Assembly: GCF_964194025.1 (NCBI RefSeq)
Contig: NC_134481.1
Span: forward strand, 1,054,001 to 1,118,000
Origin: Convolutriloba macropyga
Taxonomy: Eukaryota
DNA length: 64,000 nt
Direction of reading: 5' to 3'
The notes under the pieces: generated by a model
Told to the model about the DNA's origin: nothing
What the model saw: only the letters and a program-made list of their open reading frames with translations
Database searches by the model: none
Shown here: piece after piece, positions 1-62,300 of the stretch
How the letters are laid out: each line of letters begins with the position of its first letter
How positions within the stretch are numbered: the first letter of the stretch is position 1
Position numbers and translations under genes: made by a program

Positions 1-329
1 TCGAGGCGGTTAACGATTTGATTCAGAGATTATCGAGAAATACTGATGGCAATTCCAAGGAAAGTGGCCATAACAGCCAAAGCTGGGTTAACGCACGACG
101 CGGGCATCACAATAACTTCAACCAAAACAAAGGCAGACCAAATTTGCTAGAAAACGAAAAAAAGGATTCCCCAATAATGATAAAAATTTTAATAGAGACT
201 CCAACGATACATGTACTGGATGCGGACAAAAAGGGCATAGAATTAACCAGTGTCGAAATTGTTTTCATTGCGGGAGTTCCCAACACATAAAACGGTACTG
301 TCGTAACAGAAAACCAAAGCAAACAACAG

Positions 330-3300
330 AATCAGCGAATGTTATCAAAGTCTGTTCAAATAGCACAACTGTTTAAATGCTTTAGTATACAAATACTCAT
401 ACAAGGGCAAATAAAAAAGGGTCTAGTCGATAGCGGCAGTAGTGTATCCCTAATAAGCGTTGAACTGCTGAAATCAATATGAGACACAAAACGAATAGAC
501 CCATACAATAACAGAGTTCTAGCTGCTAATAACACATCAGTTAACGTCTTAGGAAAGGTTGAAATTTTATTCAATTGGAACCCAAACAACCCAAATTTTT
601 GCATGAGTTTATAGTCACTCAAGATAACCATATCTCGCCTCTACTAGGTTTGGACATCCTTACTGATCAAAAGTGTATACTGAATTTAAACGAACAGAAT
701 ACTTTGTGGTCGACACAATTTCACTATTCCGCTTATTACTCAGAAAGTGAACAACGTTTATTCAATTAATCTTCTGTTGGAAACACTCATAACACCTGCA
801 AGACACGAAGCCTGGATAGAACTAATTGTGAAGAATGAGAACGCTGAGGTGACAAAGAAAACTAAAGGCCTATTTGAAAGACTCAAGGACTTTGAAAATC
901 ACACTGGTATTTTAGTGACTGACTGCCTGATATCTGTAAATGACTCAAAGAGCCAATTGAGGGTTGTTAACTTCTCTGATAATGAAATCAAGTTATTCAA
1001 AAATACTAAAATTGGAGAAATTTTCAGCAACGATAACAGCGTACAAGTAAATGGTTTGTTCACAAGCAAGAACAAGCCAAAACATCCGGAAGCTTTCCGG
1101 ATGGGGGCTCATGCAACCTTAGAGGGGAGAGATTTGAATAGAAATCAGTCTTACCAAGTCGTTGCAATGTTCATTACAAATATTCTCCAGAAACTCAAAA
1201 TGACTTGGGTTTCTGTGATAAGTAAAACATAGATAAAACTAGAAAGTGATGCAAAGCCATTCAGACGGGCCTACGGGAGTATGAGTTTTGAAAAATGGAA
1301 AGCAATAAAAAAAATAGTGAAAGACCTAGAAGAATCCAATTTGGTTAAGCCAACTCATTCATACTGGGCAGCACCGTTCATACCAGTTAAAAAGAAAGAT
1401 GGAGCATTCCGACTAGTAGTAGACTACAGTGGTTCAAATCAACAAATTGAAAAAAACAGCTGGTCATGGCCAAGAATTAACAATGAAATAGACTCGTGGG
1501 AGGGAAATTTTTATTTCTCGAACATCGACCTAAAGTCAAGCTATTTCCAAATGGCCTTAGAGGAGGAATCACCAAAAATTGACTGCTTTCATAATTCCTA
1601 TGGGTTTGCATAAATGGAGGATGTTACCAATGGGTTTAACCTCTGCGCGAGGAGCGTTCCAAAAATTGATGGAACTAATCCTGTCGGGACTTTCATACAA
1701 AGTAGCCTTGATATATCTTGATGGCATAATAATTTTTGGGAAGTCGTTTGAGGAACATTTATCTCGGATTCAGCTTGTGCTTTGTCGTATAAAGGAAGCC
1801 CGTTTAAAACTCAAAGTCTCAAAATGTCGTTTATTTCAAAAACTGATTCTTTTTTTTAGGTAATATTATATCAAAAGATGGGGTAGAGGTTGATGCGGAA
1901 AAAGTAGCCGCAGTAGCAAATATGAAACCTCCCTCAAATTTGAAAGAACTTCGTGCAATTCTTGGATTAGTTGGATTTTATCGGCGATTCTTTGCAAATT
2001 TTGCTAAAATAGCGGAGCCGCTATAACGCTTGCTGAGCAAGACTGAAAAGTGTATTTGGACTACAGAATGTGACGAATCTGTGAACCAACTTAAATTAAA
2101 ATTACAGAAAGCACCCATATTGGGTTTCTCAAACGATATCGACCCTTACACGTTGACCACAGATAAATCCCTAAATGCAATAGGAGCAATTATTACCCAA
2201 AAGCAGAACTGGGTGGACTGAGTAATCGCCTACGCCTGTAAAACTCTGAATAAGGGCCAACAAAATTACTCAGCAACAGAGAGAGATTTATATGCTATTT
2301 TTTTTCACTCATTACTTTTGGAATAACTTACTGGGAAGAAATTTTATCATCGTAACAGATCATCGCGCTCTTACTTGGTTGTACAGATTCAAGGAACCCG
2401 AAGGAATGCTGGCCAGATGGATTGAGAAGCTGGGACAATTAAATTTTGAAATCCATCACCAAGCAGGGAAGAAAATATCTCATGCGGATTGTCTATCCAG
2501 AGTGCCAGCGGTGGAGGACCCATCTCTCGTGGAAAAAAACCCAGACACTAATCGAGCAACCCACAGAAAACAGCTGGTTCGATGTTTTTGAAGACCAGAG
2601 GGAGGATTTTCGACAGCATCAGCAGAAATAGCGAGAATTAAAAGAAGTGTTCTGCTGGGTGGAACAAAAGAAACGACCTGAAAAAAGACAAATGGTTGGG
2701 GCTTCAAAAAAAACATGGAAGCTCTGGACAGACTTTCAAAATTTGTATATCTCAAAAGGGCTGCTAAGGCGACAAAGGCTGCTCGAAGAAAGTTATCGAG
2801 TCCAGCAAGTAGTTGTACACAAATCATACATGGATTTCATACTCTCTCTTTCACTTGAATCCATGGGGCACCAAGGAGTGCAGAAAACTCGTACAAGAGT
2901 GGAAGAACGTTTCTATTGGGTCGGAATGAAACCTGATATATAAGATTGGATTTTGAGCTGTGATAAGAGTTCAAAGCAGAAAAAACCTCAACAAACTCAC
3001 AGGCGGCCAACAGTATGGAAACCGAGCCATATTTTTGGCAGGTGGCGCTAGATATCATGGGACCTTTACCGAAATTGATGGTTTCAAATATATTTCACTT
3101 ATGGGAGATCAGTTCTCAAAATGGTACGAAGCGGTTCCTATGCAAAATCAGGAAGCAACAACAGTAGCAAAATCTTCTGTTGACTGCTGGTTTTCACGAA
3201 TTGGCTGCCCCACAAACTTCCATAGTGACAAGGGTACAAATTTTATGTCAAATCTTTTCAAAATTATGTGCAAGGAATTGGGCATTGATTGCACCTCTGC

Positions 3301-4298
3301 AACAGCGTATCACCCTCAAGTTAATGCAATGATTGAATGAACGAACCGAACAATTGAGGAGAATTTGGCAAAATAAGTAGGAGAACACCACAACACTTGG
3401 ATTGAATACCTTCAATTGATAATGACGGCATATCGGAGTTCTGTTCACACAGTAACAAAAAACACTATTATCTTCAGTTTGGTGCTCCTTGTGCACTTCC
3501 TATTGATTGCATGTACGAAACACTCCAAAGTCAAGTCTTTGCAACCCCAAGTGACTACGTTGGTAACTTGAAAAAGGAGCTGCAACTTTGCCACGAACTT
3601 GTACGATTGAATATGGAAGTGGAACGAGAAGGACAAAAAACTTACTACGATCGAAAACAGTTTTGATCTAAAAAAAATACTGGGGACCTGTCTTGCTGTT
3701 TAATCCAACAGTAAAATCAGGGCAAACAAAAAGTTCAAGTCGTACTATAGTGGTCCTCTTGTTATACGAGAAATAATAAATGATTTGAATTTCATCATTG
3801 AAGACCTAAAACTCAAAAACAGTAAAAAGTGGATTACAAGAGACTCAGGAAATTCAGATTTCGTCAAAACGAATGCCAGAAACAAAGTAAATTAGCCAAG
3901 AGGCCGGCTATTAACGAAGAAAAAGAGGACGACTTCATTCAAATTGAAGTCGAGCAACAAAACACTGGAGTAAGTGACCAGGGAAAAACAGACGAGCTCC
4001 CAATTCAAATTGAAGTTAATCCGGAGGCAGGACAATCTGATGAAAGTTTGTTGGAGCCTAAACCTGACATCGATAAACTGATGGATACAAAAGTGGAAGA
4101 AAAATCTTAAGATAGTGGAGCAGAGCCAACTAGTTCCAACAAATCAAAGCCAAACAGCACTCCGGGTGAGACTTTCAGTAAGAAAAAAGCAGCAACACAA
4201 GGTACAACAGTAAAATAAGAGATCAGGGTGAAAAAAACAGTAGTTCAAAAACATTTACACGAAGTTCAAGTAGACAAGCAAGCCATGAAAAAAACCCA
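330..4298 (+). pseudogene. Gypsy pol, first and most complete copy (protease, RT, RNase H, integrase)
   Basis: Fragments: ILIQGQIKKGLVDSGSSVSLI; YWAAPFIPVKKKDGAFRLVVDY; LPMGL; YLDG (YLDD in the next copy); FIIVTDHRALTWL...HADCLSR; MGHQG...RFYWVGM; DQFSKW...FHSDKGTNF...AYHPQ. Confidence 0.92.
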
Positions 4299-7200
4299 GA
4301 CTTTCATACGAAGTAGCCTTGATATATCTTGATGACATAATAATTTTTAGGAAGTCGTTTGAGGAACATTTACCTCGACTTGAGCTTGTGCTTTGTTGTA
4401 TAAAGGAAGCCGGTTTAAAACTCAAGGGCTCAAAATGTCGTTTTTTTCAAAAACTGATTCATTTTTTAGGTCAAATTATATCAAAAGATGGGGTAGAGGT
4501 TAATGCCGAAAAAGTAGCCGCAGTAGGAAACATGAAACCTCTCTCAAATTTGAAAGAACTTCGTGAAATTCTTGGATTACTTGGATTTCATCGGCGATTC
4601 ATTGCAGATTTTGGTAAAACAGCGGAGCCACAATATCGTTTGCTTAGCAAGACTGAAAAATTTATTTGGACTACAGAATGTGACGAATCTGTGAACCAAC
4701 TTAAATTAAAATTACAGGAAGCACCAATATTGGGTTTCCCAAATGATACCGACATTTACACGTTGACCACATATGCTTCCCCAACTGCAATAGGAATAAT
4801 CATTACGCAGAAGCAGAACTGGGCGGACCGAGTAATCGCCCATGCCTGTAAAAATCTGAATAAGGGCCAACAAAATTACTCAGCAACAGAGAGAGATTTA
4901 TATGCTATTGTTTATTTCACTCATTACTTTTGGAATAACTTACTGGGAAGAAATTTTATCATCGTAACAGATCATCGCGCTCTTACGTGGTTGTAGAGAT
5001 TCAAGGAACCCGAAGGGTTGCTGGCCAGATGGATTGAGAAGCTGGGACAGTCAAATTTGGAAATCCATCACCAAGCAGGGAAGAAAATACCTCATGCGGA
5101 TTGTCTATCCAGAGTGCCAGTGGTGGAGGACCCATCTCTCGTGGAAGAAAAAAACCCAAATAGTAATCGAACAACCCACAGAAAACAGCTGGTCCGATGT
5201 TTTTGAAGACCAGAGGAAGGACCTTCGATAGCATCAGCAGAAATATCGAGAAATAAAAGAAGTGTTCTGCTGGGTGGAACAAAAGAAACAACATGAGAAA
5301 AAAAAAGGTTGGGGCTTCAAAAAGGACACGGAAGCTCTGGACTGATTTTCAAAATTTGTATATCTCAAAAGGAATGCTAAGGCGACAAAGGCTGCTCGAA
5401 GAAAACTCTCGAGTCCAGCAAGTAGTTGTACACAGATCATAAATGGATTTCGTACTACCTCTTTTACATGAAGCCATGGGGCACCAAGGAGTGCAGAAAA
5501 CTCGTACAAGAGTCCAAGAACGTTTCTATCGGGTCGGAATGAAACGTGATATATACGATTGGATTTTGAGCTGCGATAAGTGTTCAAAGCAGAAAAACCT
5601 CAACAAACTGACAGGCACCCATTAACAGTATGGAAACTGAGCCATCCTTTTTGGCAGGTGGCGCTAGATATCATGGGACCTTAACCCGAAATTGATGGTT
5701 TCAAATATATTTTACTTATAGGAGATCAGTTCTCAAAATGGTACGAAGCGGTTCCTATGCAGAATCAGGAAGCAACAACAGTAGCAAAATCTTCTGTTGA
5801 CTGCTGGGTTTCACGATTTGGCTGCCCCGCCAATTTTCATAGTGACAAGGGTACAAATTTTATGTCAAATCTTCTCAAAATTATGTGCAAGGAATTAACG
5901 AACGGAACAATTGAGGATAATTTGGCAAAATACGTAGGAGAACAAAATACTTGGAGTGAATACCTTCAATTGATAATGACGGCATATCGCAGTTCTGTTC
6001 ACACAGTAACAGAAAACACTATTATCTTCCGTTTGGTGCTCCTTGTGCGCTTCCTATTGATTGCATGTACGAAACACTCCAAAGTCAAGTGTTTGCAACC
6101 CCAAGTGACTACGTTGGAAACCTGAAAAAGGAGCTGCAACTTTGCAACGAACTTGTACGATTGAATATGGAAGTGGAACGAGAAGGACAAAAAACTTACT
6201 ATGATCGAAAACAGTTTTGACCTAAATAACAAACTGGGGATCTGGTCTTGCTGTTTAATCCAACAGTAAAACCAGGGCAAACAAAAACTTCAAGTCGTAC
6301 TATAGTGGTGCTCTTGTTATACAAGAAATAATCAATGATTTGAATTTCAACATTGAAGACTTAAAAACTCAAAAACAGTAAAAATTGCATTACGAAAGAC
6401 TCAGGAAATTCAAATTTCGTCAACACAAATACCAGAAACAAAGTAAATTAGCCAAGAGGCCGGCTATTAACGAAGAAAAAGAGGACGACTTCATTCAAAT
6501 TGAAATTGAGCAACAAAACACAGTAAGTGACCAGGGAACAAAAACAGACAAGTTCTCAAGTCAAATTGAAGTTAATCCAGCGGCTTGACAATCTGATGAA
6601 GGTTTGTTCGAACCTAAACCTGAAATCGATAAACTGATGGATACAAATACGGAAGCAAAATCTAAAGATAGTGGAGCACAGCCAACTAGTTCCAACAAAT
6701 CAAAGCCAAACAGCACTCCCGGTGAGACTTCCAGTAAGACAAAAGCAGCAACGCAAGGCAAACAGAAACACATTACAACAAGAGATCAGGGTGAAAATCA
6801 CAGTAGTTCAAAACAATTACACAAAGTTCAATTAGAAAAGCCAGCCATGAAAGAGACCCAGACTTTCATACGAAGTAGCCTTGATATTTATTGATGACAT
6901 AATAATTTTTGGGAAGTCGTATGAAGAACATGTATCTCGACTGGAGCTTGTGCTTTGTTGTATAAAGGAAGCTGGTTTAAAACTCAAAGGCTCAAAATGT
7001 CGTTTCTTTCAAAAATTGATTCATTTTTTAGGTCAGATTATATCAAAAGATTGGCTAGAGGTTGATGCGTCAAAATAGCCGCAGTAGCAAATATGAAACC
7101 TCCCTCAAATTTGAAAGAACTTCGTGCCATTCTTAGATTAGTTGGATTTTATCGGTGATTCATAGCAGATTTGGGTAAAATAGCGGAGCCGCTATATCGT

Positions 7201-10200
7201 TTGCTGGGCAAGACTGAAAAATTTATTTGGACTACAGAATGTGACGAATCTGTGAATCAACTTATATTAAAATTACAGGAAGCACCAATATTGGGTTTCC
7301 CAAATGATACCGACATTTACACGTTGACCACAGATGCTTCCCCAACTGCAATAGGAAAAATCATTACGCAGAAGCAGAACTGGGCGGACCGAGTAATCGC
7401 CCATGCCTGTAAAACTCTGAATAGGGGCCAACAAAATTACTCAGCAACAGAGAGAGATTTATATGCTATTGTTTATTTCACTCATTACTTTTGAATAACT
7501 TACTGGGAAGAAATTTTATCATCGTAACAGATCATCGCGCTCTTACGTGGTTGTAGAGATTCAAGGAACCCGAAGGGTTGCTGGCCAGATGGATTGAGAA
7601 GCTGGGACAGTCAAATTTTGAAATCCATCACCAAGCAGGGAAGAAAATACCTCATGCGGATTGTCTATCCAGAGTGCCAGTGGTGGAGGACCCATCTCTC
7701 GTGGAAGAAAAAAACCCAAATAGTAATCGAACAACCCACAGAAAACAGCTGGTCCAATGTTTTTGAAGACCAGAGGGAGGATCTTCCATAGCATCAGCAG
7801 AATTATCGAGAAATAAAAGAAGTGTTCTGCTGGGTGGAACAAAAAAAACACCTGAAAAAAACAAATGGTTGGGGCTTCAAAAAGAACATGGAAGCTCTGA
7901 ACTGATTTTCAAAATTTGTATATCTCAAAAGGAATGCTAAGGCGACAAAGGCTGCTCGAAGAAAACTCTCGAGTCCAGCAAGTAGTTGTACACAGAGAAC
8001 ACATGGATTTCATACTACCTCTTTTACATGAAACCATGGGGCACCAAGGAGTGCAGAAAACTCGTAAAAGAGTCCAAGAACTTTTCTATCGGGTCGCAAT
8101 GAAACGTGATATATACGATTGGATTTTGAGCTGCGATAAGTGTTCAAAGCAGAAAAAACCTCAACAAACTGACAGGCACCCATTAACAGTATGGAAACTG
8201 AGCCATCCTTTTTGGCAGGTGGCGCTAGATATCATGGGACCTTAACCCGAAATTGATGGTTTCAAATATATTTTACTTATAGGAGATCAGTTCTCAAAAT
8301 GGTACGAAGCGGTTCCAATGCAAAATCAGGAATTGATAGTGACGGCATATCGCAGTTCTGTTCACACAGGAACAAAAAAACACTATTATTTTCCGCTTGG
8401 TGCTCCTTGTGCACTTCCTATTGATTGCATGTACGAAACACTCCAAAGTCAAGTCTTTGCAACTCCAAGTGACTACGTCGGTAACCTGAAAAAGGAGCTG
8501 CAACTTTGCAACGAACTTGTACGATTGAATATGGAAGTGGAACGAGAAGGACAAAAAAATTACTACGATCGAAAACAGTTTTGACCTAAATAACAAACTG
8601 GGGATCTGGTCTTGCTGCTTAATCCAACAGTAAAACCAGGGCAAACAAAAACTTCAAGTCGTACTATAGTGGTGCTCTTGTTATACAAGAAATAATCAAT
8701 GATTTGAATTTCAACATTGAAGACTTAAAAACTCAAAAACAGTAAAAATTGCATTACGAAAGACTCAGGAAATTCAAATTTCGTCAACACGAATACCAGA
8801 AACAAAGTAAATTAGCCAAGAGGCCGGCTATTAACGAAGAAAAAGAGGAAGACTTCATTCAAATTGAAATTGAGCAACAAAACACAGTAAGTGACCAGGG
8901 AACAAAAACAGACAAGTTCTCAAGTCAAATTGAAGTCAATCCAGCGGCTTGACAATCTGATGAAGGTTTGTTCGAACCTAAACCTGAAATCGATAAACTG
9001 ATGGATACAAATACGGAAGCAAAATCTAAAGATAGTGGAGCACAGCCAACTAGTTCCAACAAATCAAAGCCAAACAGCACTCCCGGTGAGACTTCCAGTA
9101 AGACAAAAGCAGCAACGCAAGGCAAACAGAAACACATTACAACAAGAGATCAGGGTGAAAATCACAGTAGTTCAAAACAATTACACAAAGTTCAATTAGA
9201 AAAGCCAGCCATGAAAGAGACCCAGACTTTCATACGAAGTAGCCTTGATATTTATTGATGACATAATAATTTTTGGGAAGTCGTATGAAGAACAGGTATC
9301 TTGACTGGAGCTTGTGCTTTGTTGTATAAAGGATGATATGAAACCTCCCTCAAATTTGAAAGAACTTCGTGCCATTCTTAGATTAGTTGGATTTTATCGG
9401 CGATTCATTGCAGATTTTGGTAAAAGAGCGGAGCCGCTATATCGTTTGCTGAGCAAGAATGAAAAGTTTATTTGGACTACAGAATGTGACGAATCTGTGA
9501 ACCAACTTAAATTAAAATTACAGGAAGCACCCATATTGGGTTTCCCAAACGATATCGACCCTTACACGTTGACCACAGATAAATCCCTAACTGATATAGG
9601 AGCAATCATTACCCAAAAGCAGAACTGGGTGGACTGAGTAATCGCCTATGCCTGTAAAACTCTGAATAAGGGCCAACAAAATTACTCAGCAACAAAGAGA
9701 GATATATATGCTATCGTTCATTTCACTCATTAATTTCGGAATTACTTACTGGGAAGAAATTTTATCATCGTAACAGATCATCGCGGATTTACGTGGTTGT
9801 ACAGGTTCAAGGAACCCGAAGGGATGCTGGCCAGATGGATTGAGAAGCTGGGACAATTTAATTTTGAAATCCATCACCAAGCAGGGAAGAATATACCTCA
9901 TGCGGATTGTCTATCCAGAGTGCCAGCGGCGGAGGACCCATCTCTCGTGGAAGAAAAAAACCCAAATAGTAATCGAACAACCCACAGAAAACAGCTGGTC
10001 CGATGTTTTTGAAGAACAGAGGGAGGATCTTCGATAGCATCAGCAGAATTATCGAGAAATAAAAGAAGTGTTCTGCTGGGTGGAACAAAAGAAACAACCT
10101 GAAAAAAAAGGTTGGGGCTTCAAAAAGAACATGGAAGCTCTGGACTGATTTTCAAAATTTGTATATCTCAAAAGGGCTGCTAAGGCGACAAAGGCTGCTC

Positions 10201-11727
10201 GAAGAAGACTCTCGAGTCCAGCAAGTAGTTGTACACAGATCATTAATGGATTTCATACTACTTCTTTTACTTGAATCCATGGTGCACCAAGGAATGCTGA
10301 AAACTCGTACAAGAGTCCAAGAAAATTTCTATTGGGTCGGAATAAAACGTGATATATACGATTGGATTTTGAGCTGCGATAAGTGTTCAAAGCCGTAAAA
10401 TCCTCAACAAACTCACAGGAGCCAGTAACAGTACGGAAACCGAGCCATCCTTTTGGCAGGTGGCGCTAGATATCATGGGACCTTTACCCGAAATTGATGG
10501 TTTCAAATATATTTTACTTATAGTAGATCAGTTCTCAAAATGGTACAAAGCAGTTCCTATGCAAAAGCAGGAAGCAACAACAGTAGCAAAATCTTCTGTT
10601 GACTGCTGGGTTTCACGAATTGGCTGCCCCACAAACTTCCATTGTGACAAGGGTACAAATTTTATGTCAAATCTTTTCAAAATTATGTGCAAGGAATTGG
10701 GCATTGATTGCACCTCTGCAACAGCGTATCACCCTCAAGTTAATGCAATGACTGAACGAACGAACGGAACAACTGAGGATAATTTGGCAAAATACGTAGG
10801 AGAACAAAACACTTGGAGTGAATACCTTCAATTGATAATGACGGCATATCGCAGCTCTGTTCACACAGTAACAGAAAACACTATTATCTTCCGTTTGGTG
10901 CTCCTTGTGCGCTTCCTATTGATTGCATGTACGAAATACTCCAAAGTCAAATCTTTGCAACCCCAAGTGACTACGTCGGTAATCTGAAAAAGGAGCTGCA
11001 ACTTTGTCACGAACTTGTGCCATTGAATATGGAAGTGGAACGAGAAGGACAAAAAACTTACTACGATCGAAAACAGTTTTGATCTAAAAAAAATACTGGG
11101 GACCTGTCTTGCTGTTTAATCCAACAGTAAAATCAGGGCAAACAAAAAGTTCAAGTCGTACTATAGTGGTCTTCTTGTTATACGAGAAATAATAAATGAT
11201 TTGAATTTCATCATTGAAGACCTAAAACTCAAAAACAGTAAAAAGTGGATTACAAGAGACTCAGGAAATTCAGATTTCGTCAAAACGAATGCCAGAAACA
11301 AAGTAAATTAGCCAAGAGGCCGGCTATTAACGAAGAAAAAGAGGACGACTTCATTCAAATTGAAGTCGAGCAACAAAGCACTGGAGTAAGTGACCAGGGA
11401 ACAAAAATAGACGAGCTCCCAAGTCAAATTGAAGTTAATCCGGAGGCGGGACAATCTGATGAAGGTTTGTTGGAGCCTAAAACTGACATCTATAAACTGA
11501 TGGATATAAATACGGAAGCAAAATCTAAAGATAGTGGAGCACAGCCAACTACTTTCATTAAAACAAAGCCAAACAGCACTCCGGGTGAGACTTCCAGTAA
11601 GATAAAAGTAGCAACACAAAAAAACAGAACAACAGTACAACAAGAGATCAGGGTGAAAAACACAGTAGTTCATAAACAATTACACAAAGTTCAAGTAGAC
11701 AAGCAAGCCATGAAAACGCCCCAGACT
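1688..11727 (+). repeat. Four tandem copies (2611, 2562, 2364, 2499 bp) of the segment from RT C-terminus to integrase C-terminus
   Basis: The junction ...CCCAGACTTTCATACGAAGTAGCC recurs at 4299, 6861 and 9225. Copies differ by substitutions and private deletions. Confidence 0.93.
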
Positions 11728-11909
11728 GGAAAGGGGGACCTGGCCGAGTTATAGTCGAAACATCAGAAAAACCTAGTACGCGACCCGCTGCCAGCCGATC
11801 AAAACCTAGCAAATTTAAGGATTATTTTCTTGCACAAAGATAGAAACGACGATCAAAGTGATAACGTGTCGAAAAAAGATAACTGTTTTAGCACAGGCAG
11901 ACAGAGAAG

Positions 11910-14900
11910 ATGACATCAGACACACACTCAATTTTTAGTAAGATATTCGTGTTTTGCATTGTCATGGGATCCACAAAAAGCAACAAAAAAGAAATTACGT
12001 CATATAACTTTGAAAATTTAGCAAAAAACCTCTAGTTTCTGATTGTGGGAAAAAGATAACTGCACTCAAAACCACAAACATGCTCTTGTATTATCTACTA
12101 TATCATGAGAGTTTTAAAGTCCACTTAAATTACTGCACATTTCAAGCCGCATACACAGTCGGTGGCCTAAAGAAAAGCACATGGTGATACGACGCAGTTG
12201 TTATTCAAGACAACTTGCAATTGATTCCCAGGTACTATCCACTTACCAGCGAAGCTCGTAGCAAATTGCAACAAGGCATATCGTTAAATTTACCGGGGCT
12301 TAGAAATGAAAAAATTAGGTTCGAAACCACTCTATTGAGGAATATACAAAAGTCAAAAACAGAAATCAAAATTAAATAAAAAATAATGGGCGCCTTTATG
12401 AATGGCGGGAAGAACAAAGTTGTAAAATTTGTATATCCAGTAGCTTGGCAAACCCCAATGAAAAAAACATTACTGTTAGTGTAGTCACCAACGCAGAAGT
12501 AACACTTGGAAAATTTAACCCGCAAATGTTGCAAAGAGAAAATGGATAAAAGATAAAATTCCTAGACCCATTTGGAAACCAACAATTTCATTCCTGGAAT
12601 CGAGAAATCTTTTGTTGACTGCCGGGTTTCATGATTTGGTTGCGCCGCCAATTTTCATAGTGACTAGGGTGCAAATTTTTTGTCAATTATTTTCAAAATT
12701 ATGTGCAAGGAATTCGGCATTGAATGCACCTCTGCAGGAGCGTATCACCTTCAAGGTAATGCAGTGATTGAACGAACGAACCGAACAATTGAGGAGAAAT
12801 TGGCAAAATACGTAGGAGAACAAAACACTTGGAGTGAATACCTTCAATTGATAATGACGGCATATCGCAGTTCAGTTCTGTTCACACAGTAACAGAAAAC
12901 AGTATTATCTTCTGTTTGGTGCTCCTTGTGCACTACCTATTGATTGCATGTACGAAACACTCCAAAGTCAAGTCTTTGCAACCCCAAGTGACTACGTTGG
13001 TAACCTGAAAATGAAGCTGCAATTTTGTGACGAACTTGTACCATTGAATATGGAAGTGGAACGAGAAGGATAGAAAATCACTACGATCGAAAACAGTTTT
13101 GACCCAAATAACAAATTGGGGACCTGGTCTTGCAGTTTAATCCAACAATAAAACCAGGGCAAAAAAATTTTCAAGTCGTACTATAGTGGTCCTCTTGTTA
13201 TACGGGAAATAATAAATGATTTGAATTTCATCATTGAAGACCTAAAAACTCAAAAACAGTAAAAAGTGCATTACAAGAGACTCAGGAAATTCAAATTTCG
13301 TCAAAACGAATGCCAGAAACAAAGTAAATTAGCCAAGAGGCCGGCTATTAACGAAGAAAAAGAGGACGACTTCATTCCAATTGAAGTCGAGCAACAAAGC
13401 ACTGGAGTAAGTGACCAAGGAAAAAAACAGACGAGCTCTCAAGACAAATTGAAGTTAATGCTGAGGCGGGACAATCTGATTAAGGTTTGTTGGAGCCTAA
13501 ACCTGACATCGATAAACTGATGGATACAAATATGGGAGCAAAATCTAAAGATACTGGAGCACAGCCAACTAGTTCCAACAAAACAAAGCCAAACAGCACT
13601 CCGGGTGAGACATCCAGTAAGGCAAAAGCAGCAACAGAAGGCAAAGAGAACAACAGTACAACAAGAGATCATGGTGAAAATCACAGTAGTTCAAAAACAA
13701 TTACACAAAGTTCAAGTAGACAAGCAAGCCATGAAAAAGACTCAGACCGGAAAGGGGGACCTGGTGGCCGAGTAATAGTCGAAACATCAGAAAAATTTAG
13801 TACGCGACCCGCTGCCAGCCGATCGAAACCTAGCAAATTTAAGGATTATTATCTTGCATAAAGATAAGAACGAAGATCAAAGTGATAACGTGTTTGAATA
13901 AAGATAACTGTTTTAGCACAGGACACAGAGAAGATGACGTCAGACACAGATTCAGTTTTTGGTAAGATATTCGTGTTTTGCATTGTCATGGAATCCATAA
14001 AAAGCAACAAAATAGAAATTACCTCAAATAATTTTGAAAATTTAGCAAGAAACCTCTAGCTTCTGATTGTGGGAAAAAGATAACTGCACTCAAAACCATA
14101 AACATGCTCTTGTATTATCTACTATATCATGAGAATTTTAAAATCCACTTAAATTAATGCACGTTTCAAGCCGCATACACAGTCAGTAGCCTAAAGAAAA
14201 GCACATGGTGATACGAAGCAGTTTTTATTCAAGCCAACTTGCAATTGATTCCCAGGTACTATCCACTTACCAGCAAAGCTTGTAGCAAATTGCTACAAGG
14301 GATATCGGTATTTTTACCGGGGTTTAAAAATGAAAAATTTAGGTTCAAAACCACTCTATTGAGGAAGTTACAAAAGTCAAACTTAGAAATCAAAAATAAA
14401 TTAAAAATAGGGGCGCCTTTATGAATGGCCGGAACAACAAAACTGTAAAATTGTAATATCCAGTAGCTTGGCAAACCCCTATGAAAAAAACATTACTGTT
14501 AGTGTAGTCATCAACGCGGAAGTAACACTTGGAAAAATTAACGCGCAAATGTTGCAAAAAGAAAAAGGATAAAAGATAAAGTGCCTAGACCCATTTGGAA
14601 ACCAAAAATTTCATTCCTGGAATCGAGAAATCTTTCGTTGACTGCTGGGTTTCATGATTTGGTTGCCCCGCCAATTTTCATAGTGACAAGGGTACAAATT
14701 TTATGTCAAATATTTTCAAAATTATGTGCAAGGAATTGGGCATTGAATGCACCTCTGCAAGAGCGTATCACCTTCAAGGTAATGCAGTGATTGAACGAAC
14801 GAACCGAAAAATTGAGGAGAAATTGGCAAAATACGTAGGAGAACAAAGCACTTGGAGTGAATACCTTCAATTGATAATGACGGCATATAGCAGTTCTGTT

Positions 14901-17373
14901 CACACAGTAACAAAAAACAGGATTTTCTTCTGTTTGGTGCTCCTTGTGCACTACCTATTGATTGCATGTACGAAACACTCCAAAGTCAAGTCTTTGCAAC
15001 CCCAAGTGACTACGTCGGTAACCTGAAAAAGGAGCTGCAGCTTTTCCACAATCTTGTACAATTGAATATGGAAGTGGAACGAGAAGGACAAGAAACTTAC
15101 AACAATCGAAAACAGTTTGTACCTAAATAACAAACTGGGTCCTGGTCTTGCTGTTTAATCCATCAGTAAAACGAGGGCAAACAAAAAAGTTCAAGTCGTA
15201 CTATATTGGTCCTCTTGTTATACGAGAAATAATAAATGATTTGAATTTCATCATTGAAGACCTAAAAAATCAAAAACAATAAAAAGTGCATTACAAGAGA
15301 CTCAGGAAATTCAAATTTCGTCAAAACGAATGCCAGAAACAAAGTAAATTAGCCAAGAGGGCGGCTATTAACAAAAAAAGAGGACGGCCGGCTTCATTCA
15401 AATTGAAGTCGAGCAACAAAGCACTCGAGTAAGTGACCAGGGAACAAAAACAGAAGAGCTCCCAAGTCAAATTGAAGTTATTCCAGAGGCGGGACAATCT
15501 GATGAAGGTTTGTTGGAGCCTAAACCTGACATCGAGAAACTGATAGACACAAATATCTGAAGGAAGCAAAATCTAAAGATAGTGGAGCACAGCCAACTAG
15601 TTCCAAAAAAACAAAGCTACACAAGAAAACTCGCAACTGATTCCCAGGTACTATCCACTTACCAGCGAAGCTTGTGGCAAATTGCTACAAGGGATATGGG
15701 TAATTTTACCGGGGTTTAAAAATGAAAAATTTAGGTTCAAAACCACTCTATTGAGGAAGTTACAAAAGTCAAACTTAAAAATCAAAAATAAATTAAAAAT
15801 AGGGGGCGCCTTTATGAATGGCGGGAACAACAAAGTTGTAAAATTGGCATATCCAGTAGCTTGGCAAACCCCTATGAAAAAAACATTACTGTTAGTGTAG
15901 TCATCAACGCAGAAGTAACACTTGGAAAACTTAGCGCGCAAATGTTGCAAAGAGAAAAAGGATAAACATAAATTTCCTAGACCCATTTGGAAACGAGCGA
16001 GATAGATTCGAGCGTGATTATACCCAATAGAGTGTCCAAAAAGAAATATAACAAAATTATTCAATCCTGCTGGATTCTCGGAAAAAAACACAGCAGAGCT
16101 GATTGCTGCGGGTATTCATCACTATGTGATGGGCAGGACCACTGATAAAAGGAGATATGTCATACAAGTGTTAACCGAGGAAATCAGAATAAACAATCTA
16201 GTGGTAAATAAAACTAACCATCAAAACGTCTATTTTTACTAATTTAGCCTCGATATAAATTTTCAGTAAACAACATACACTGTAACTACTCAAGATGTCA
16301 GCAAAAGTGGTTTAGATGCGTTATTTGTCCAAGAATTTAATGGTCTACATGCAATTGTTGACGAAATGTCAAATCTGAGATGTAGAATGAACAAAATTTA
16401 AAGACAAAACGCATTGGCTGTAATGGGGAACGGTGATTCGCATTCTCTTTTCATTGGTAAAGAGGGAGTCATGGGACTGCATGCAGAGTCAGCAGGTGCA
16501 ATATTTCACGTTCATAATTGTGCAAAAATAATCTTAGAATTAACTGCTCTAATTTACTGTACTGAGGAAGTGCCGATTATTGTAAGACAAAATGATAATT
16601 AGAGCTACGTACGTTATATGAACCCAATATCCAAGGTTTTCTATAGAAATTTTACCCTTATAAAGTGCAACCCATTGTTCCCTAATGTATTCAAACTAGG
16701 TAATGGTTCTTGGGTACCGTTTGGTCGAAACCTTACGATAGTAGGAAAACCACAAGTGTTGTCTTATCTTGAGGAACCCAAACGTGAAGTTCCTATTTTT
16801 ACGGAAGTTTTCGATGGTTTATTCAGAGAGAAGCAGCTAGACGAAAGTCCTATAGCTCAAATGTATAGACACAACTGAAAATTGATAACAGGAAGGGAAG
16901 TTTTCCTGGGACCAAATTGAAAGTATACAGATATACAACTATTAGACTTCAACACATACACCAGTGATTTTAATTAGCATGAAGTTTCTTGATTTAAACC
17001 CATGGAAAGAAACACTTTGAAAGTTTAGCACTTAGTAAGGGAATCGACCTTAACGCTAATGACATTGCTTTTGACTGCAAAAATTCTAGTAACGTTTTTA
17101 AGAATAATTTTATCAACTACGTTATTTTTGGACGGTGCTCAGCCAAGAGTGGCACAACAGCCGATTAACACGTGAATCGAACTTATTTATATAACCGTTC
17201 TGGAAAATCAACAATTAAAACAAAAACAAGTCTCAAAAGAAGCTATTGAAACAAAAGTAAGCGAGTTGTCGGGTACCGACAAAACGGCCTTTGAGGCGGG
17301 TCCTGTTAGCCAAGAAAAAACAGATCTATTTCAGTTGGAAAACTTTTCACGGTCAATAGAATCTCTGGAATGA
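11910..17373 (+). pseudogene. env-like class III fusion glycoprotein (herpes gB/chuvirus-G-like); 5' part in copies at 11910-12579 and 13934-14602, remainder 15620-17373
   Basis: Signal-like MTSDTHSIFSKIFVFCIVMG. LASDCG in a shifted frame. Central helix ...LRCRMNKI*RQNALAVMG. Then AGAIFHVHNCAKIILEL...YCTEEVPI...YMNPISKVF...KCNPLFPNVFKLGNGSW...GKPQVL. TM-like LTLMTLLLTAKILVTFLRIILSTTLFL at ~17050-17130. Confidence 0.8.
12605..15618 (+). repeat. Second set of tandem duplications (integrase core to env 5' part; period 2023 bp, last copy truncated)
   Basis: The junction TTTGGAAAC + ~25-nt filler + AAATCTTT.GTTGACTGC occurs at ~12580-12605 and ~14603-14628. The sequence jumps back into env at ~15620. 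Confidence 0.88.
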
Positions 17374-17422
17374 TGTTTGTTCTCTTAAACATGTCTAATA
17401 TTGGTTTCGTTTAGATTGCAAA

Positions 17423-18255
17423 ATGGAACCAGAAGTGGGAGATTATGTATATTATCTGCCGCAACTGTACGAAGTAAAAACTGTTGTCCGATGAGGAATC
17501 TATATAATGTGCGTGGTCGAAATCCGTTTTAGAACAGTCGTGGCCCTGAATGAATTATACTCAACAGAACTAACCCAGAGACAGCCTTTTAATACGCAGG
17601 AATTGAGTCGGATGAAAGTCGGTTAGAAAACAGCGAAAAGCTGGGAGTTGCTTCCTTGCTTTTACAGGAGCAATTTAAATTTGTACAACAGGAAAACAGT
17701 ATGCTACAAAGGCAAGTTGTTGAGTTAAAGCAACAACTAATCGTTGCCTAACAGCTTCGGGAGCACTTTCGTGCTAGAATTGAGGCTGATAATAGTTTAG
17801 TTGAGTTTGAATGCCAACTCCAGCAAATGCAGCTTGACTGCGATTGAGCAAGAACTGAATCAGACGCTTTGTCTGGGGAGCTAAAATCAGCTCTTTGAAA
17901 AGTCGTTGAATACGAGGGGGAGCTAGAAGCAGCTCGGAAAAAATATTCAAAAACGTATTCAAGGGTAAGAAAATTAGAGTTAAAATTAGAGGCGGAGATA
18001 AACGCCAAAAAGCTCACTGCACGACGACTACAGGAGATTGAGAAAAAGTTACCCTGTACAAGAGCTTTGTCAATATACGATCTTCTTTGGATTTCGCCCA
18101 AAGCAACGAATGAGGAAATCCAACGGTGATTCAAACATCTATCTCTATTGATATACCCTGATAAAGGAGGCCAAACAGAGAGATTCCAGTTATTAAATCA
18201 AATAAGATGCGTGCTTATGGATAACGGAGCACGTAAATTATACGAAACTCGTTGA
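17423..18255 (+). pseudogene. Accessory ORF: N-terminal beta-rich segment, long coiled coil and C-terminal DnaJ (J) domain
   Basis: Frame 1, 18070-18252, reads SIYDLLWISPKATNEEIQR*FKHLSLLIYPDKGGQTERFQLLNQIRCVLMDNGARKLYETR (HPD read as YPD at 18154-18162). A heptad-rich region spans 17650-18050. ATG at 17423, with one frameshift. Confidence 0.85.
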
Positions 18256-18304
18256 TGGATGTCGAGTTTTTAAATTAAAAATGAGTGGAGCATAATGCTT
18301 CCAT

Positions 18305-18316
18305 AAGGGAAGGAAG
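18305..18316 (+). other. Polypurine tract of Gypsy element 1
   Basis: AAGGGAAGGAAG immediately before TGTAGTG. Confidence 0.8.
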
Positions 18317-20554
18317 TGTAGTGAACCTAAAAACAAGCTCACGAATTCTTTAATGCGAAAGCTTTCAAAAAATTACACTTTAAATGGCTTCAAACGAAAA
18401 AACACTTGAAAGTGACGGCCTAACACGCCGATTTATGGTTTAATATATATGAGACAGTATTTTTAACCAATTGTCATAAGAATTTATGAATCAAACGTTT
18501 GAACCGAGATTATGTCAGAGAGTAAATAGGATGTTCAACGCTATCGATGGGACCAAACACTGCGTTTGGGAAAAACATTCAGAGCAAGGACTCTGGGACC
18601 AAATTATCTTGGTAAACGCAAATTAAGATACAACCGGGGGCTAAACCACTTAACTTCGATTATCACGGTTCAAATTAACTTTTAACGCAATTTCTGAAGC
18701 TGCCTTCCCTACATTTCACTTTTATAAAAGTTAAATTTTTTTAATCCTTTTATGAGCTGAACTTTGCCTCTAATTTCTGAATTCAACCAGTTCCACCATT
18801 TTGAGTTTTTCACAAGAATTGGGAGGATATTTTAGAATCTAGTTAATTGAAAGGGATTCTATAAAGGAATTACATTAGCCATTTTGCTTAAAACTGAGTT
18901 CAGGTGATTTTCAAAGGTAAAGTTTCAATCATCTTGTACTCCAAGATAACGACAAAAATGAGCTGGTTTGATAACTTCTTTAAAAGTAAAGTCTGGATAC
19001 GCTAGTATAATTCGTGAAAGAATAAAACCTCTGTTTTATTGGCATTTAGAGTGAGTTGAACCTCTGTCAGGTATTTGTCTGTTTGTTCTAATATATTTTC
19101 AATTTTTTTGTGCAAAGAATTTATGAATCAAACGTTTGAACCGAGATTATGTCAGAGAGTAAATAGGATGTTCAACGCTATCGATGGGACCAAACACTGC
19201 GTTTGGGAAAAACATTCAGAGCAAGGACTCTGGGACCAAATTATCTTGGTAAACGCAAATTAAGATAAAACCGGGGGCTAAACCACTTAACTTCGATTAT
19301 CACGGTTCAAATTAACTTTTAACGCAATTTCTGAAGCTGCCTTCCCTACATTTCACTTTTATAAAAGTTAAATTTTTTTAATCCTTCTATGAGCTGAACT
19401 TTGCCTCTAATTTCTGAATTCAACCAGTTCCACCATTTTGAGTTTTTCACAAGAATTGGGAGGATATTTTAGAATCTAGTTAATTGAAAGGGATTCTATA
19501 AAGGAATTACATTAGCCATTTTGCTTAAAACTGAGTTCAGGTGATTTTCAAAGGTAAAGTTTCAATCATCTTGTACTCCAAGATAACGACAAACATGAGC
19601 TGGTTTAATAACTTCTTTAAAAGTAAAGTCTGGATACGCTAGTATAATTCGTGAAAGAATAAAACCTCTGTTTTATTGGCATTTAGAGTGAGTTGAACCT
19701 CTGTCAGGTATTTGTTTGTTTGTTCTAATATATTTTCAATTTTTTTGTGCAAAGAATTTATGAATCAAACGTTTGAACCGAGATTATGTCAGAGAGTAAA
19801 TAGGATGTTCAACGCTATCGATGGGACCAAACACTGCGTTTGGGAAAAACATTCAGAGCAAGGACTCTGGGACCAAATTATCTTGGTAAACGCAAATTAA
19901 GATAAAACCGGGGGCTAAACCACTTAACTTCGATTATCACGGTTCAAATTAACTTTTAACGCAATTTCTGAAGCTGCCTTCCCTACATTTCACTTTTATA
20001 AAAGTTAATTTTTTTTAATCCTTCTATGAGCTGAACTTTGCCTCTAATTTCTGAATTCAACCAGTTCCACCATTTTGAGTTTTTCACAAGAATTGGGAGG
20101 ATATTTTAGAATCTAGTTAATTGAAAGGGATTCTATAAAGGAATTACATTAGCCATTTTGCTGAAAACTGAGTTCAGGTGATTTTCAAAGGTAAAGTTTC
20201 AATCATCTTGTACTCCAAGATAACGACAAACATGAGCTGGTTTGATAACTTCTTTAAAAGTAAAGTCTGGATACGCTAGTATATTTCGTGAAAGAACAAA
20301 ATCTCTGTTTTATCGGCATTTAGAGTGAGTTGAACCTCTGTCAGGTATTTGTCTGTTTGTTCTAATATATTTTCAATTTTTTTGTGCAATTTCTTTTTAG
20401 ACAAACGTGAGATTAGGGAAAAAATTTAAAACTTCATATTGATTGGGAAGTGACCCCCCGACAAAAGAGCTGATCAACAGAGGTGGATATCTAAAGATCA
20501 GAAATCTTGAACTAGAACCTCACTGAATTTTCACTTCTCGATCTTTTTATTACA
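18317..20554 (+). repeat. 3' LTR (~964 bp native) expanded by internal triplication
   Basis: Starts TGTAGTG after the PPT. Probable end TATTACA at 20554, two C>T changes from the perfect inverted CACTACA. Contains TATAAAA and AATAAA. Confidence 0.65.
18478..20388. repeat. Three near-identical tandem copies of a 637-bp unit
   Basis: AAGAATTTATGAATC at 18478, 19115 and 19752. The matching 62-aa ORFs at 19075 and 19712 are also 637 bp apart. Confidence 0.97.
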
Positions 20555-57955: not shown

Positions 57956-58385
57956 ATCAAGAGCGTCATTCTGCAACACTAAAGAAACGGAATCAGAGAA
58001 AAATTATCACAGCTGAAGCTTCATAAAAAAAACAATTGTCTCAAAATTCATGTTTATCTCAAACTAATGTTTATTCTTTTGGGAAATTTATCACTCAAAA
58101 ACAAGCAAATTCTGGATGCCGTGTTACAACTCCCCAATGTCAAAAATTGTTCCACCGATCTCCAAGAGGTATGGAATATTCATTATTAAAAATAAATCAA
58201 ACTCAACAAAACTTAAACTCCAAGAAGGTGATATACACGAACTCATAGAATCTAATACAGGAAAAACCAGCTTAATAACCTCACATAAACCAATACGCCA
58301 GACCTGCCCACTTTGTCGATTGAAAACAAACGGACAATATCAACAGGAGAATTGTTCTTTTCACTCATAAAATACAACAACAGAT

Positions 58386-59399
58386 ATGGCCGCACCGCAC
58401 CCACCACACGTATCGCTCAAACGTTTTGCCGGGCTACCCAACGAAAACTGGGACCAATTTGAAGGTCTTTTGAGAGCAAGCATAGCAGTTGCCAGAATTC
58501 CGGCAGATCATAACCAACAAGCCCGATACCTACATTTACACCTCGACGGAAACGCATTAAACTATTATCTACGCTTACCAGAAAACACACGAAACGACCT
58601 TGATGACGCATTAGAACAGTTACGCAACCGCTACTCAGGCCCAGACCAACGGCGTAATTTTGAGTTAGACTTACAGAGCAGGAAATTTGATCCCGTGAAG
58701 GAACAACCAGACGATTTTCTAACTGACTTACAGCGGCTTGCCAACTTAGCAATCGTCGATGACGTTGGTGCCGGAATTGACCGCAATGACGAGCGGACAA
58801 GAAGAATCCGAGAACAATTTATACAGGGGATGCCCTTCAAATACAAAAAAGATCTTCTCAGAGAATTGGACAATGTCGGAGTAAACGACTTATGCTCCAT
58901 AGTCAAAAGACGACTTCGAATAGACCAATTAAACCCAGAGCCAGCACACACCACAGCCTTCAACTCTCTAACAAGCTCCCAAAACTCTGCTTTTAACCAA
59001 GCGGTCGAAAACATAATGGCAGCAGGAATAGCTTCAATTCAGGCATCAGTCTCACAAACAACGCCACCAAGATGGCCGAACACCACCCAAAATAAATTTA
59101 ACAAGCCTTTCACAAACTACAACAGAAATAACACAGCATACAGAACGCAAAACCAAAATAGAAGCTTCTCAGGTTATCAAAACCGTCCTTTCTATCGAGG
59201 TAGAGGAAGAGGTACAAACGCGATAAGCAGATACAACAACCAAAGTCAACAATACAACCAGCGACAACGATCTCCCACGCCAATGCGCACTTTTTGCAGG
59301 ATATGCGCAAGCAACGAGCATACCGCACGTGATTGCACTCAGAGGCAACCACCTTATCGCGACGCAACAATGTCATTCAACCAACAGCCAAAAAACTGA
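58386..59399 (+). CDS. Gag of Gypsy element 2 (intact 337 aa)
   Basis: Helical capsid-like N-terminus (RFAG...WDQFE...LDGNALNYY), N/Q/R-rich linker, zinc knuckle CRICASNEHTARDC. Confidence 0.88.
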   Translation: MAAPHPPHVSLKRFAGLPNENWDQFEGLLRASIAVARIPADHNQQARYLHLHLDGNALNYYLRLPENTRNDLDDALEQLRNRYSGPDQRRNFELDLQSRKFDPVKEQPDDFLTDLQRLANLAIVDDVGAGIDRNDERTRRIREQFIQGMPFKYKKDLLRELDNVGVNDLCSIVKRRLRIDQLNPEPAHTTAFNSLTSSQNSAFNQAVENIMAAGIASIQASVSQTTPPRWPNTTQNKFNKPFTNYNRNNTAYRTQNQNRSFSGYQNRPFYRGRGRGTNAISRYNNQSQQYNQRQRSPTPMRTFCRICASNEHTARDCTQRQPPYRDATMSFNQQPKN

Positions 59400-62300
59400 A
59401 TAACCTGCATGCTTTTCTACAAAAAATTTCTTACTGTACAACTAGCTATAACGAAAATGTCTTTCTAATTCCTATTCAATTAGGCTCAATTACAATGAAA
59501 GCGATAGCTGACACTGGAGCATTTAGTAGCGCTATGTCACAAAAACATTTTGATAAAATCTACAATCATCTAACGCAAAAACCCATAAAAAAGGCACCAC
59601 CGGAAATTACGGTCTCCACAGCGTTTATGCATCAGTCTCAAATATTATTCACGACAAATTTAACATTCTAAATTGGCCATTTAGAGCTCACAGAGGACTT
59701 TATGGTTTTTGAGAAACTCTCCGGCATATTACTTGGATTCCCCTTTTTCGACAAAAACGAAATAACAATCGACGCGCACGACCGCTATCTACATTTCCTT
59801 GAATTCACATTTCAGCTGAATTTGATGCAGACGGCAGGCTCAAAAACATCAAAACGATTCAATAAAAAGCGTAAAATTTATCTAAAAACAACAACTCGAG
59901 TTATAATTAACCCCGGTGAACAGAAATTAATTGAACTCACGCCTTATCAACCATTCGAAGCAGATCACCAAATTGGAATAGTAGAGCCTACAACAAAACT
60001 CGAAAACATAGGAGTCTGCCTTACGAGTACGATAAACAAAATGCTAAAGGACAAACCAATTCAACTAATGGCTATCAACACAACGGAAGTACCGATCACA
60101 ATCGAAAGAAACACACTACCTGCAACCTTAACGATAATAACACCCGAACAAGCTCGCTATCTTATCCCATTAGAGCCCAAGTTGCTGGAAACAGATAATT
60201 TCTCAAAGACAACAAAAACCATATCGAAACATATTGAGAAAGTAGCGAAGGGCCAGCTAAATCACATCACAATTAACCACAACGCAAAATACTGGTTTCC
60301 AACCCCAGAGACAACTGAAGATCCATCCAAACTCACAGGACTAGAGAAACGGATTTACGAAGAACTCATCCGCTTCAAGAAGAGAGAGTCCATTCGACCA
60401 CTGGATAACGTAGAGGATCGAAAAACATTTTTGGACTCCTTTAATTGGCACGGAAGTGTCCTAACAGACGACGAAAAGAAGAAGACAGAGAATCTCTTAT
60501 TGGAATTCAACGATATATTTACAAGACATCGCCTTGACATTGGCTACACCTCAAAATTCTCAGTAAAACTGACGCCTGATACTGATAGACCAGTATAATC
60601 AAAAAACCAAAGAGTTTCCATCCACCTCAAAGACGATCTCCTAGTAGAACTCGCCTTATTACAATACTACGGCGTGATTACAACGTTGCCATTCAGTAGA
60701 TATTCATCACCAATCTTTGCAAAAAGAAAACCGAATGGAAAACTACGAATATTAGTAGATCTGCGTAAAATCAACCACCTGATTCGAAATGACTATAACA
60801 ACAACAATTTCCCAATAGCAACACTGGCTGACGCAGGAAGCCATCTTGCAGGCAAGAAGCTCTTTTGCAAAATGGACGGAAGCCATGGATACTACTCCGT
60901 GCCAATGGCCGACGAGCAATCTATTCAACTGCTCGCTTTCAATTTTGCATCGCGAACTTACGCATTTAAAAGATTAGCACAAGGACTGAGTAGAAGTGTC
61001 AGCGCATTCAGCTCATTCATGCGACAGAATCTTGACCCCGTAATTACCGCTGACAAATGTTTTCAATACGTAGACGATATTGGAGTAGGTGCTCATGATC
61101 TCCCAGATATGCTGGAAAAACTATCAGCAGTCTTCACGTGCGTCAGAGAATCAGGAATGAAGCTAGCTACAGATAAATGCGCCTTTGGTCTGAAGGAAAT
61201 TCTGTTCTTGGGGAACACGATAACTTCAGAGGGTTTAACCCCTATCAAACAGAAAATCGCGACGTTTCTCAGAACATTCAAGATGCCGAAAAATGTTAAG
61301 CAAACAAAAAGAATGATCGGTTTCTTCAATTTTTACAAAGCCTTCATACCAGAGCTCGGAGAAAAGCTGCTTCCTTTTTATAGATTACTTAAGAAAGAAA
61401 CAGACTTTGAAATAAACGAGGAGCACAACATAATGTTAAAGAAACTGACACAAGATCTACAATCAGCCTGTGAAATATCACTGAGGCTACCGATGACCAA
61501 TCGACAATATGTCATTATGGCCGATGCATCATTCTATGCTGCCGGATTTGTATTAATGATCGAGGATTACACCCAAACGGCAAACGGAACGTCTGAACAC
61601 AAAATTTATGCACCTGTAAGTTTCGGATCACGTATTTTCAAACCAAATCAACTCAAGATGTCAATCTACGCGAAAGAATTTCTTGCCGTTCATTTTGCCC
61701 TTGATATGTTTGCAAACATCCTTTGGGGATGCGAGAAACCAGTACTAGTCCTAACAGAAAACAGAGCTGTCACCAGATTCTTTCAAACAAAGATCATTCC
61801 GCCAAGCTGTGGAACGCATTAGATCACGTATTGAGTTTTGACATAATACTAGGACATCCCTGGAAAAGCCAACCTCGCGGCAGACTACCTCTCAAGGATA
61901 CACATAAACCCGAAGGAGAAACTCACACTTCGCATCAACTCGAAGATACCAATCAGTGAAGTCCAAATTGACACTACCGCCGAAGTCCCGGACAACTCAA
62001 TTAATACACTCCTGCACGAAACATCCAAGGAAAACACTCCGAAACACTATCTTTTTCAGACCGTCAACGAAACAGATCAAACAGAAATCATTGAGGAGGT
62101 TCATATTCAACAAATAAAACCGGCGCAGCTCCAGGCAATACACGAACACAATCCAATGGACGACTTTGATACAACCGGTCACTCGCCATTGAATCTAAGA
62201 GCCGAACAACAAAAAGACTCAGACATCAAAAGAGTTATCCTTTGGTTCGAAAGAGGCCCACCAACAACCGCCCAATATCTCTCAGGAGACTTGAAAAAGT

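Follow-up and report, generated by a model that had tools for sequence, protein, structure and literature searches.

A J-domain protein gene behind env in a clade of Ty3/gypsy elements of Convolutriloba macropyga

Does an env-bearing retroelement of Convolutriloba macropyga possess a J-domain (DnaJ) gene of its own, or did a single decayed copy pick up a piece of a host gene? Env-bearing Ty3/gypsy elements are usually treated as three-gene elements. The question is raised by a 64,000-nucleotide stretch of contig NC_134481.1 (assembly GCF_964194025.1, positions 1,054,001 to 1,118,000 of the forward strand; hereafter the window), bases 1–18863 of which hold the remains of one Ty3/gypsy element. 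A first-pass annotation, made from the letters alone, had proposed that an open reading frame (ORF) between env and the 3' long terminal repeat (LTR), here called ORF4, encodes a coiled-coil and J-domain protein, and that the element represents a gag-pol-env-J retrovirus. The window's ORF4 is a dead copy. The gene itself is best explained as an old accessory gene, inherited within a clade of env-bearing Ty3/gypsy elements and very probably maintained by selection.

A fourth gene shared by three families

Searches of the organism's own genome (1.18 Gb), in which match numbers are lower bounds and not copy numbers, uncovered three element families that share ORF4: A, to which the window's element belongs, B and C. 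At least 151 matches were found to the window protein (150 scored of 1100 candidates), at least 138 to a natural family-B protein (138 scored of 1923) and at least 152, mostly from family C, to a distant homologue (150 scored of 2371). The order gag, pol, env, ORF4, LTR was present at the fetched sites of all three families, and at the best-scoring loci env lay upstream and an LTR downstream of ORF4 in 26 of 30 cases for family A (the window included), 28 of 30 for B and 10 of 10 for C. When the linkage was tested in reverse with an env-only DNA query, all 40 family-A copies scored (96 candidates) had ORF4 sequence on the strand of env, at most about 1 kb further downstream. The linkage rests on this env-only search; junction searches, whose best 40 candidates are biased to complete copies, were not used. 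One-off capture of ORF4 is rejected by the occurrence of the gene in the same slot in three families and behind every env copy scored. The proposed gag-pol-env-J layout therefore holds, ORF4 being a constant component of one gag-pol-env-ORF4 lineage of Ty3/gypsy elements.

Other hallmarks of Ty3/gypsy LTR retrotransposons were also seen. The LTR pairs of the three families are 93–99% (A), 96–100% (B) and 95–99% (C) identical and, being nearly identical, indicate that all three were mobile recently. A primer-binding-site-like motif and a purine tract are present in sister elements, and a 4-bp target duplication was found at three of seven sites checked. The pol frames of A and B carry Pfam domains in the order protease, reverse transcriptase (RT), RNase H, integrase; the env of A, B and C matches PF24664 above its cut-off, and family-B env has a hydrophobic segment (mean 2.18) of the kind that anchors a protein in a membrane. 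An RT tree restricted to elements of this genome, from which two of nine rows were dropped where the motif was missed, places A, B and C on one branch against two other Gypsy RTs, with a Shimodaira–Hasegawa-like approximate likelihood ratio (SH-aLRT) of 96. Family-A and family-B copies adjoin at several sites (L033 with L034, L047, L054 with L053), and the env–ORF4 spacer of family C (L118, L120, L122, L126) contains a tandem repeat of about 36–40 bp whose copy number varies.

No J gene was found at 30 loci of other env-bearing families of the genome. At least two unrelated env-bearing families hold a different long ORF behind env, which suggests that this position is a general accessory slot. 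These ORFs were seen in Gypsy families with a glycoprotein B (gB)-type env (stretches L130–L159, e.g. L130:2846-3697, L168:516-2348, and L141 with L171); one is of about 284 codons with a leucine-zipper-like tail, another is of 611 codons without a Pfam match, and a third family has shorter frames.

Between families, identity is 51–61% for gag, 58–74% for the RT region, 27–38% for env and 26–32% for ORF4, with A and B closest in each. ORF4 frames of 283–308 codons are nonetheless open in all three. The His-Pro-Asp (HPD) motif of the J-domain is intact in 20 of 30 family-A, 27 of 30 family-B and 14 of 15 family-C copies, which bears out the earlier supposition that the active ancestor had HPD. 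For variants found in three or more copies, taken as having mostly arisen in replicating lineages, the ratio of non-synonymous to synonymous changes in ORF4 is 0.40 (A), 0.23 (B) and 0.16 (C), against 0.81, 0.62 and 0.75 for singletons (Fisher p 0.003, 0.008 and 0.004). The tail of env gives 0.38, 0.34 and 0.07 for shared variants against 0.89, 0.81 and 1.00 for singletons. Judged by these ratios, shared ORF4 variants appear to be mostly under purifying selection, of a strength on par with that on env. A codon-position test also indicates constraint in family B, with p 8e-6 and, for nine copies that a distant query had picked, p 9e-5, and in family C (p 0.04). Two results weigh against selection in family A: the codon-position test gives no signal there (p 0.52), and the N-terminal domain shows no constraint among its copies. 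Most copies were picked by ORF4 score, a choice biased to intact ones; the open frames retained at less than one-third identity between families are independent of it. The first-pass annotation had named one-off capture, an absence of purifying selection and a wrong LTR start as outcomes that would overturn it; none of the three was obtained.

Architecture and relatives of the ORF4 protein

The window's J-domain was recognized by Pfam DnaJ (PF00226) at 18073–18246 with 43.6 bits (cut-off 27.8) and an E-value of 3.3e-11, in a translation with X at the stops. In a structure model of a natural family-B protein, a predicted Tudor/SH3-like barrel is followed by a 139-residue helix (59–197) and a canonical J-domain, which thus lies at the C-terminus behind barrel and coiled coil. 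The barrel, about 50 residues long, is a conserved domain in its own right that the first-pass annotation had overlooked. It is conserved in 11 homologues at 22–44% identity, while the rod varies from 64 to 154 residues. It is basic and, according to the model, has the features of an SH3-like beta-barrel; it matches none of the Pfam Tudor/PWWP families. A profile comparison with the GPY/F barrel at the tail of the element's own integrase gave an hhalign probability of 1.1% and E 0.047, a score that 4 of 100 shuffles reach; the tail windows ranked first and second of 15 pol windows. The coiled coil probably dimerises and acts as a spacer. The layout of class A and B DnaJ proteins (N-terminal J-domain, G/F region, client-binding domains) is absent, no other DnaJ family domain was matched, and no signal peptide or membrane segment was found in ORF4. 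With a J fold and an HPD motif, although the latter is lost in the window's own copy, ORF4 is best read as a class C J-protein.

A search of 1.84 billion cluster representatives, together with cluster members, returned seven full-length homologues from elsewhere (P0139, P0156, P0272, P0161, P0174, P0196 and P0302), all seven with the three parts and HPD. They are 22–34% identical to A, B and C and 24–44% identical among themselves; three homologue queries against the C. macropyga genome gave identities of at most 50%, over short stretches. The seven presumably sit in retroelements. No relatives of P0139 were found in viral contigs, nor of P0159 in metagenome contigs, and a search for longer, fused forms of ORF4 scored none among 8000 candidates, a weak negative. 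Two database proteins, P0025 and P0122, have an ORF4 part fused to an env piece or to a host DUF1907 protein, probably through deletion or insertion in dead copies.

In a quick J-domain tree (77 sequences, 78 columns), the three element and eight distant sequences form one branch (SH-aLRT 94, unstarred), to which neither the 16 J-domains taken from the host assembly nor the 50 library hits belong. The 16 come from 20 fetched stretches, four of which were left out as cut by exon ends. No host donor was resolved among these 16 and 50 sequences. The family-A J-domain has a long branch and lies away from that of B.

The window element and its surroundings

The features of the window element are collected in Table 1. 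Its gag and a remnant of its 5' LTR lie just outside the window, upstream (matches in stretch L049); the remnant stops some 1.4 kb short of base 1 and is followed by a primer-binding-site-like motif. The 3' LTR is only 86% identical to this remnant over 280 bp, which indicates that the insertion is old. The window env is 72% identical to a natural family-A env.

Table 1. Remains of the family-A element in the window
Feature	Position	Strand	Basis or remark
Decayed gag tail, protease and RT start of the family-A element	1..1690	+	aspartyl-protease match weak, E 0.0065
Tandem array of broken 2.0-2.6 kb copies of pol segments and env 5' end, mutual identity 87-98%	1688..15617	+	
Main env copy, class III (gB / Monjiviricetes-type) fusion glycoprotein, stop-interrupted	15622..17373	+	PF24664 Monjiviricetes_fusion, E 9.8e-14
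Branch-point-like motif, pyrimidine tract and AG, directly before ORF4 start	17395..17414	+	putative splice acceptor
ORF4 N-terminal domain, ~50 aa, predicted Tudor/PWWP/SH3-like beta-barrel; stop at 17492	17423..17575	+	
ORF4 coiled coil, ~140-150 aa; three stops and a frameshift near 17620	17576..18072	+	family-B model helix; composition and heptad contrast
ORF4 J-domain; one stop, HPD motif altered; terminal stop 18253-18255	18073..18255	+	
Polypurine tract	18305..18316	+	sequence; position matched in sister copies
3' LTR, ~547 bp	18317..18863	+	84-85% match to upstream LTRs of family-A elements

Most landmarks of the first-pass annotation were found where it had placed them: the env stop (17371–17373), the ATG at 17423 with the N-terminus that it quoted, stops at 17492, 17749, 17845, 17896 and 18127, YPD at the position of HPD, the purine tract, and the start of the LTR at 18317, the segment 18315/17–18863 matching upstream LTR copies of sister elements. 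Three details had to be revised. ORF4 does not run in a single frame; after about 65 codons in frame +2 it continues in frame +1, and the region of the switch differs in length in 23 of 29 sister copies. The coding part closes at its terminal stop and does not extend to the LTR border at 18316. Lastly, the suggestion that each of the five stops arose by one C>T change fits two of them (67–68% of sister copies); the other three fit none of the sister copies.

The pattern ahead of ORF4 may be a possible splice acceptor. It precedes ORF4 in 21 of 27 copies of family A and in 23 of 29 of family B, set against a background of 6 among the 164 ATGs of a single element; copies of one family do not count as independent observations. 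Contigs from four runs of one study, of unclear kind and DNA-like with loose ends at LTR borders, showed intron-type ends at none of 15 joints, a sample beside which there were 190 more, and are uninformative on splicing.

Tandem duplication of pol/env segments inside elements, as at window bases 1688–15617, was also seen in L031/L032, L120/L121 and L124 (families A and C). Bases 18471–20389 consist of three 637-bp tandem units, 98–99% identical, each made of the 3' part of the LTR plus flanking DNA. A second, unrelated Gypsy element with a zinc-knuckle gag and pol runs off the window (58371–64000, and L166:881-3379); its pol is followed by an ORF in the env position that has no Pfam match. 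Scattered 40–120 bp repeats at 28715–50948 are probably a small non-autonomous element.

A possible role for ORF4 and its counterparts elsewhere

In class C J-proteins, the non-J domains position Hsp70 on a client. J-domains with HPD stimulate Hsp70, an activity that is lost when the motif is substituted, as set out in a 2026 review (PMC13254874). Together, these two properties have led us to view ORF4 as an adaptor. Its message would probably be a spliced subgenomic RNA, and its product a soluble class C J-protein in which the basic barrel docks, the coiled coil gives reach and probably dimerises, and the C-terminal J-domain brings in Hsp70. The most likely ligand of the barrel is nucleic acid, or a nucleoprotein complex, of the element itself (the Gag–RNA particle, or the reverse-transcription or integration complex), where the J-domain would recruit and activate host Hsc70/Hsp70 for assembly or disassembly. 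These complexes are favoured as the client because the barrel is basic and because SV40 T antigen offers a precedent (PMC3486835). Recruitment of Hsp70 is likely; the whole account, with the element's nucleoprotein complexes as target, stands at about even odds (roughly 0.5). Candidate steps that may depend on Hsp70 are particle assembly, uncoating, disassembly of the integration complex and escape from silencing, and since ORF4 is a small soluble protein of modular build, identifying what its 50-residue domain binds could tell which of them it is.

Among the alternatives, counter-silencing fares best, although we consider it unlikely. Here the barrel, a Tudor-type reader or its mimic, would dock on methylated histones at the provirus or on methylated proteins of the Piwi pathway, and Hsp70, brought in by the J-domain, would strip or inactivate the silencing complex. 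The predicted fold is of the required kind, but the N-terminal domain is only 9–21% identical to Tudor-type reader domains and has no match in the Pfam families already mentioned, its conserved aromatics, compared with Tudor patterns, look like core positions, and selection within families is purifying and not diversifying. A broader form, in which ORF4 typifies a family of retroelement-encoded reader-spacer-J proteins across several host lineages whose barrel docks on a silencing mark or protein and aims Hsp70 there, is likewise doubtful. If it were true, ORF4 would be a counter-defence gene by which an invertebrate endogenous retrovirus turns a host chaperone against transposon control, and the elements would rank as complex retroviruses in which the position behind env serves as an exchangeable accessory slot.

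It is improbable that ORF4 acts globally, tying up or redirecting Hsp70 so as to evoke a heat-shock response from which the transcription of the element and the folding of its proteins would profit. Phage Rki, acting on DnaK and sigma-32, sets an example (PMC3486835, PMC13254874), and ORF4 lacks a G/F region and a class A/B client-binding domain; the conserved barrel at the far end of the rod, however, suggests a specific docking partner, which a simple sink would not need. A helper of Env or of particle release, working from the cytosolic side in Env traffic, in an Env–Gag link or in budding, has still poorer prospects. ORF4 directly follows env in all three families, and two unrelated env-bearing families also keep an extra ORF in the slot, but position behind env follows from genome layout and does not imply partnership; with neither signal peptide nor membrane segment, moreover, ORF4 could not chaperone the Env ectodomain in the endoplasmic reticulum. 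That ORF4 is a functionless passenger, a host DnaJ fragment captured once, is largely refuted and very improbable: the window copy is broken, like most others of family A (5 of 30 are stop-free), and one of the two selection tests fails in that family, but the frames remain open in three families at 26–32% identity, HPD and barrel persist in seven further homologues, selection seems as strong as on env, and the J-domains of the elements keep to their own branch.

The architecture of ORF4 appears undescribed in the literature searched, within a known class of elements, the function of the protein being read from fold and motif. Full-text literature searches, covering titles and the openings of abstracts outside subscription journals, Repbase and Dfam, yielded no retroelement-encoded J-protein; an annotation may nevertheless exist in a database. 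Errantiviruses with an HSV/gB-type env (HSV, herpes simplex virus; Chary and Hayashi, eLife 2026, PMC13524379) resemble A–C in their LTR-gag-pol-env-LTR structure, the protease-RT-RNase H-integrase order, a class III env and near-identical copies; A–C add a fourth ORF with a J-domain after env. That survey comprised 1,512 env-bearing elements, and its pipeline sought three ORFs only. Its text is free of the terms DnaJ, J domain, Hsp40, chaperone and Tudor, and its seven supplements, the long cells of which were covered in part, are free of DnaJ, J-domain, Hsp40 and ORF4. Peptide and primer-site motifs gave no match in those supplements either, a result that is uninformative given the cut of long cells at 400 characters. 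In the clade described here a fourth gene has persisted while env has diverged to about 30% identity.

A family-specific extra 3' gene, there typically expressed from a spliced message, is also found in the bdelloid LTR retrotransposons Vesta and Juno (PMC5408684), whose extra ORFs encode a GDSL esterase, a DEDDy exonuclease or a coiled-coil or membrane ORF3; DnaJ is absent from that paper. The Vesta/Juno ORF mostly replaces env and is an enzyme or a membrane protein, whereas ORF4 is additional to env and is a co-chaperone. Chromoviruses, as treated in PMC13524379, are likewise Ty3/gypsy elements with a small chromatin-reader-like beta domain, but their chromodomain is fused to integrase, while the barrel of ORF4 shares a J-domain's polypeptide, distinct from integrase. 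Baculovirus BJDP and the DnaJ proteins of giant viruses share with ORF4 a J-domain fold in accessory genes of eukaryotic viruses, bjdp being listed as an auxiliary gene in PMC5794183; their matches to ORF4 are weak and partial (BJDP E 0.017), the best covering the J-domain only, so that a common architecture is not indicated.

Virus-encoded class C J-proteins are known in the polyomavirus T antigens and Rki of phage RB43, which (PMC3486835, PMC13254874) join an HPD J-domain to an unrelated domain, as ORF4 does, and turn host Hsp70 to the parasite's ends. The section on Hsp70 hijacking in the 2026 review (PMC13254874) names phages, polyomaviruses, HSV ICP22 and Plasmodium but mentions no retroelement. 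T antigens and Rki belong to DNA viruses and have the J-domain at the N-terminus; ORF4 belongs to a reverse-transcribing element and has it at the C-terminus, behind barrel and coiled coil. A J-domain in such an element would extend the hijacking of Hsp70 beyond DNA viruses.
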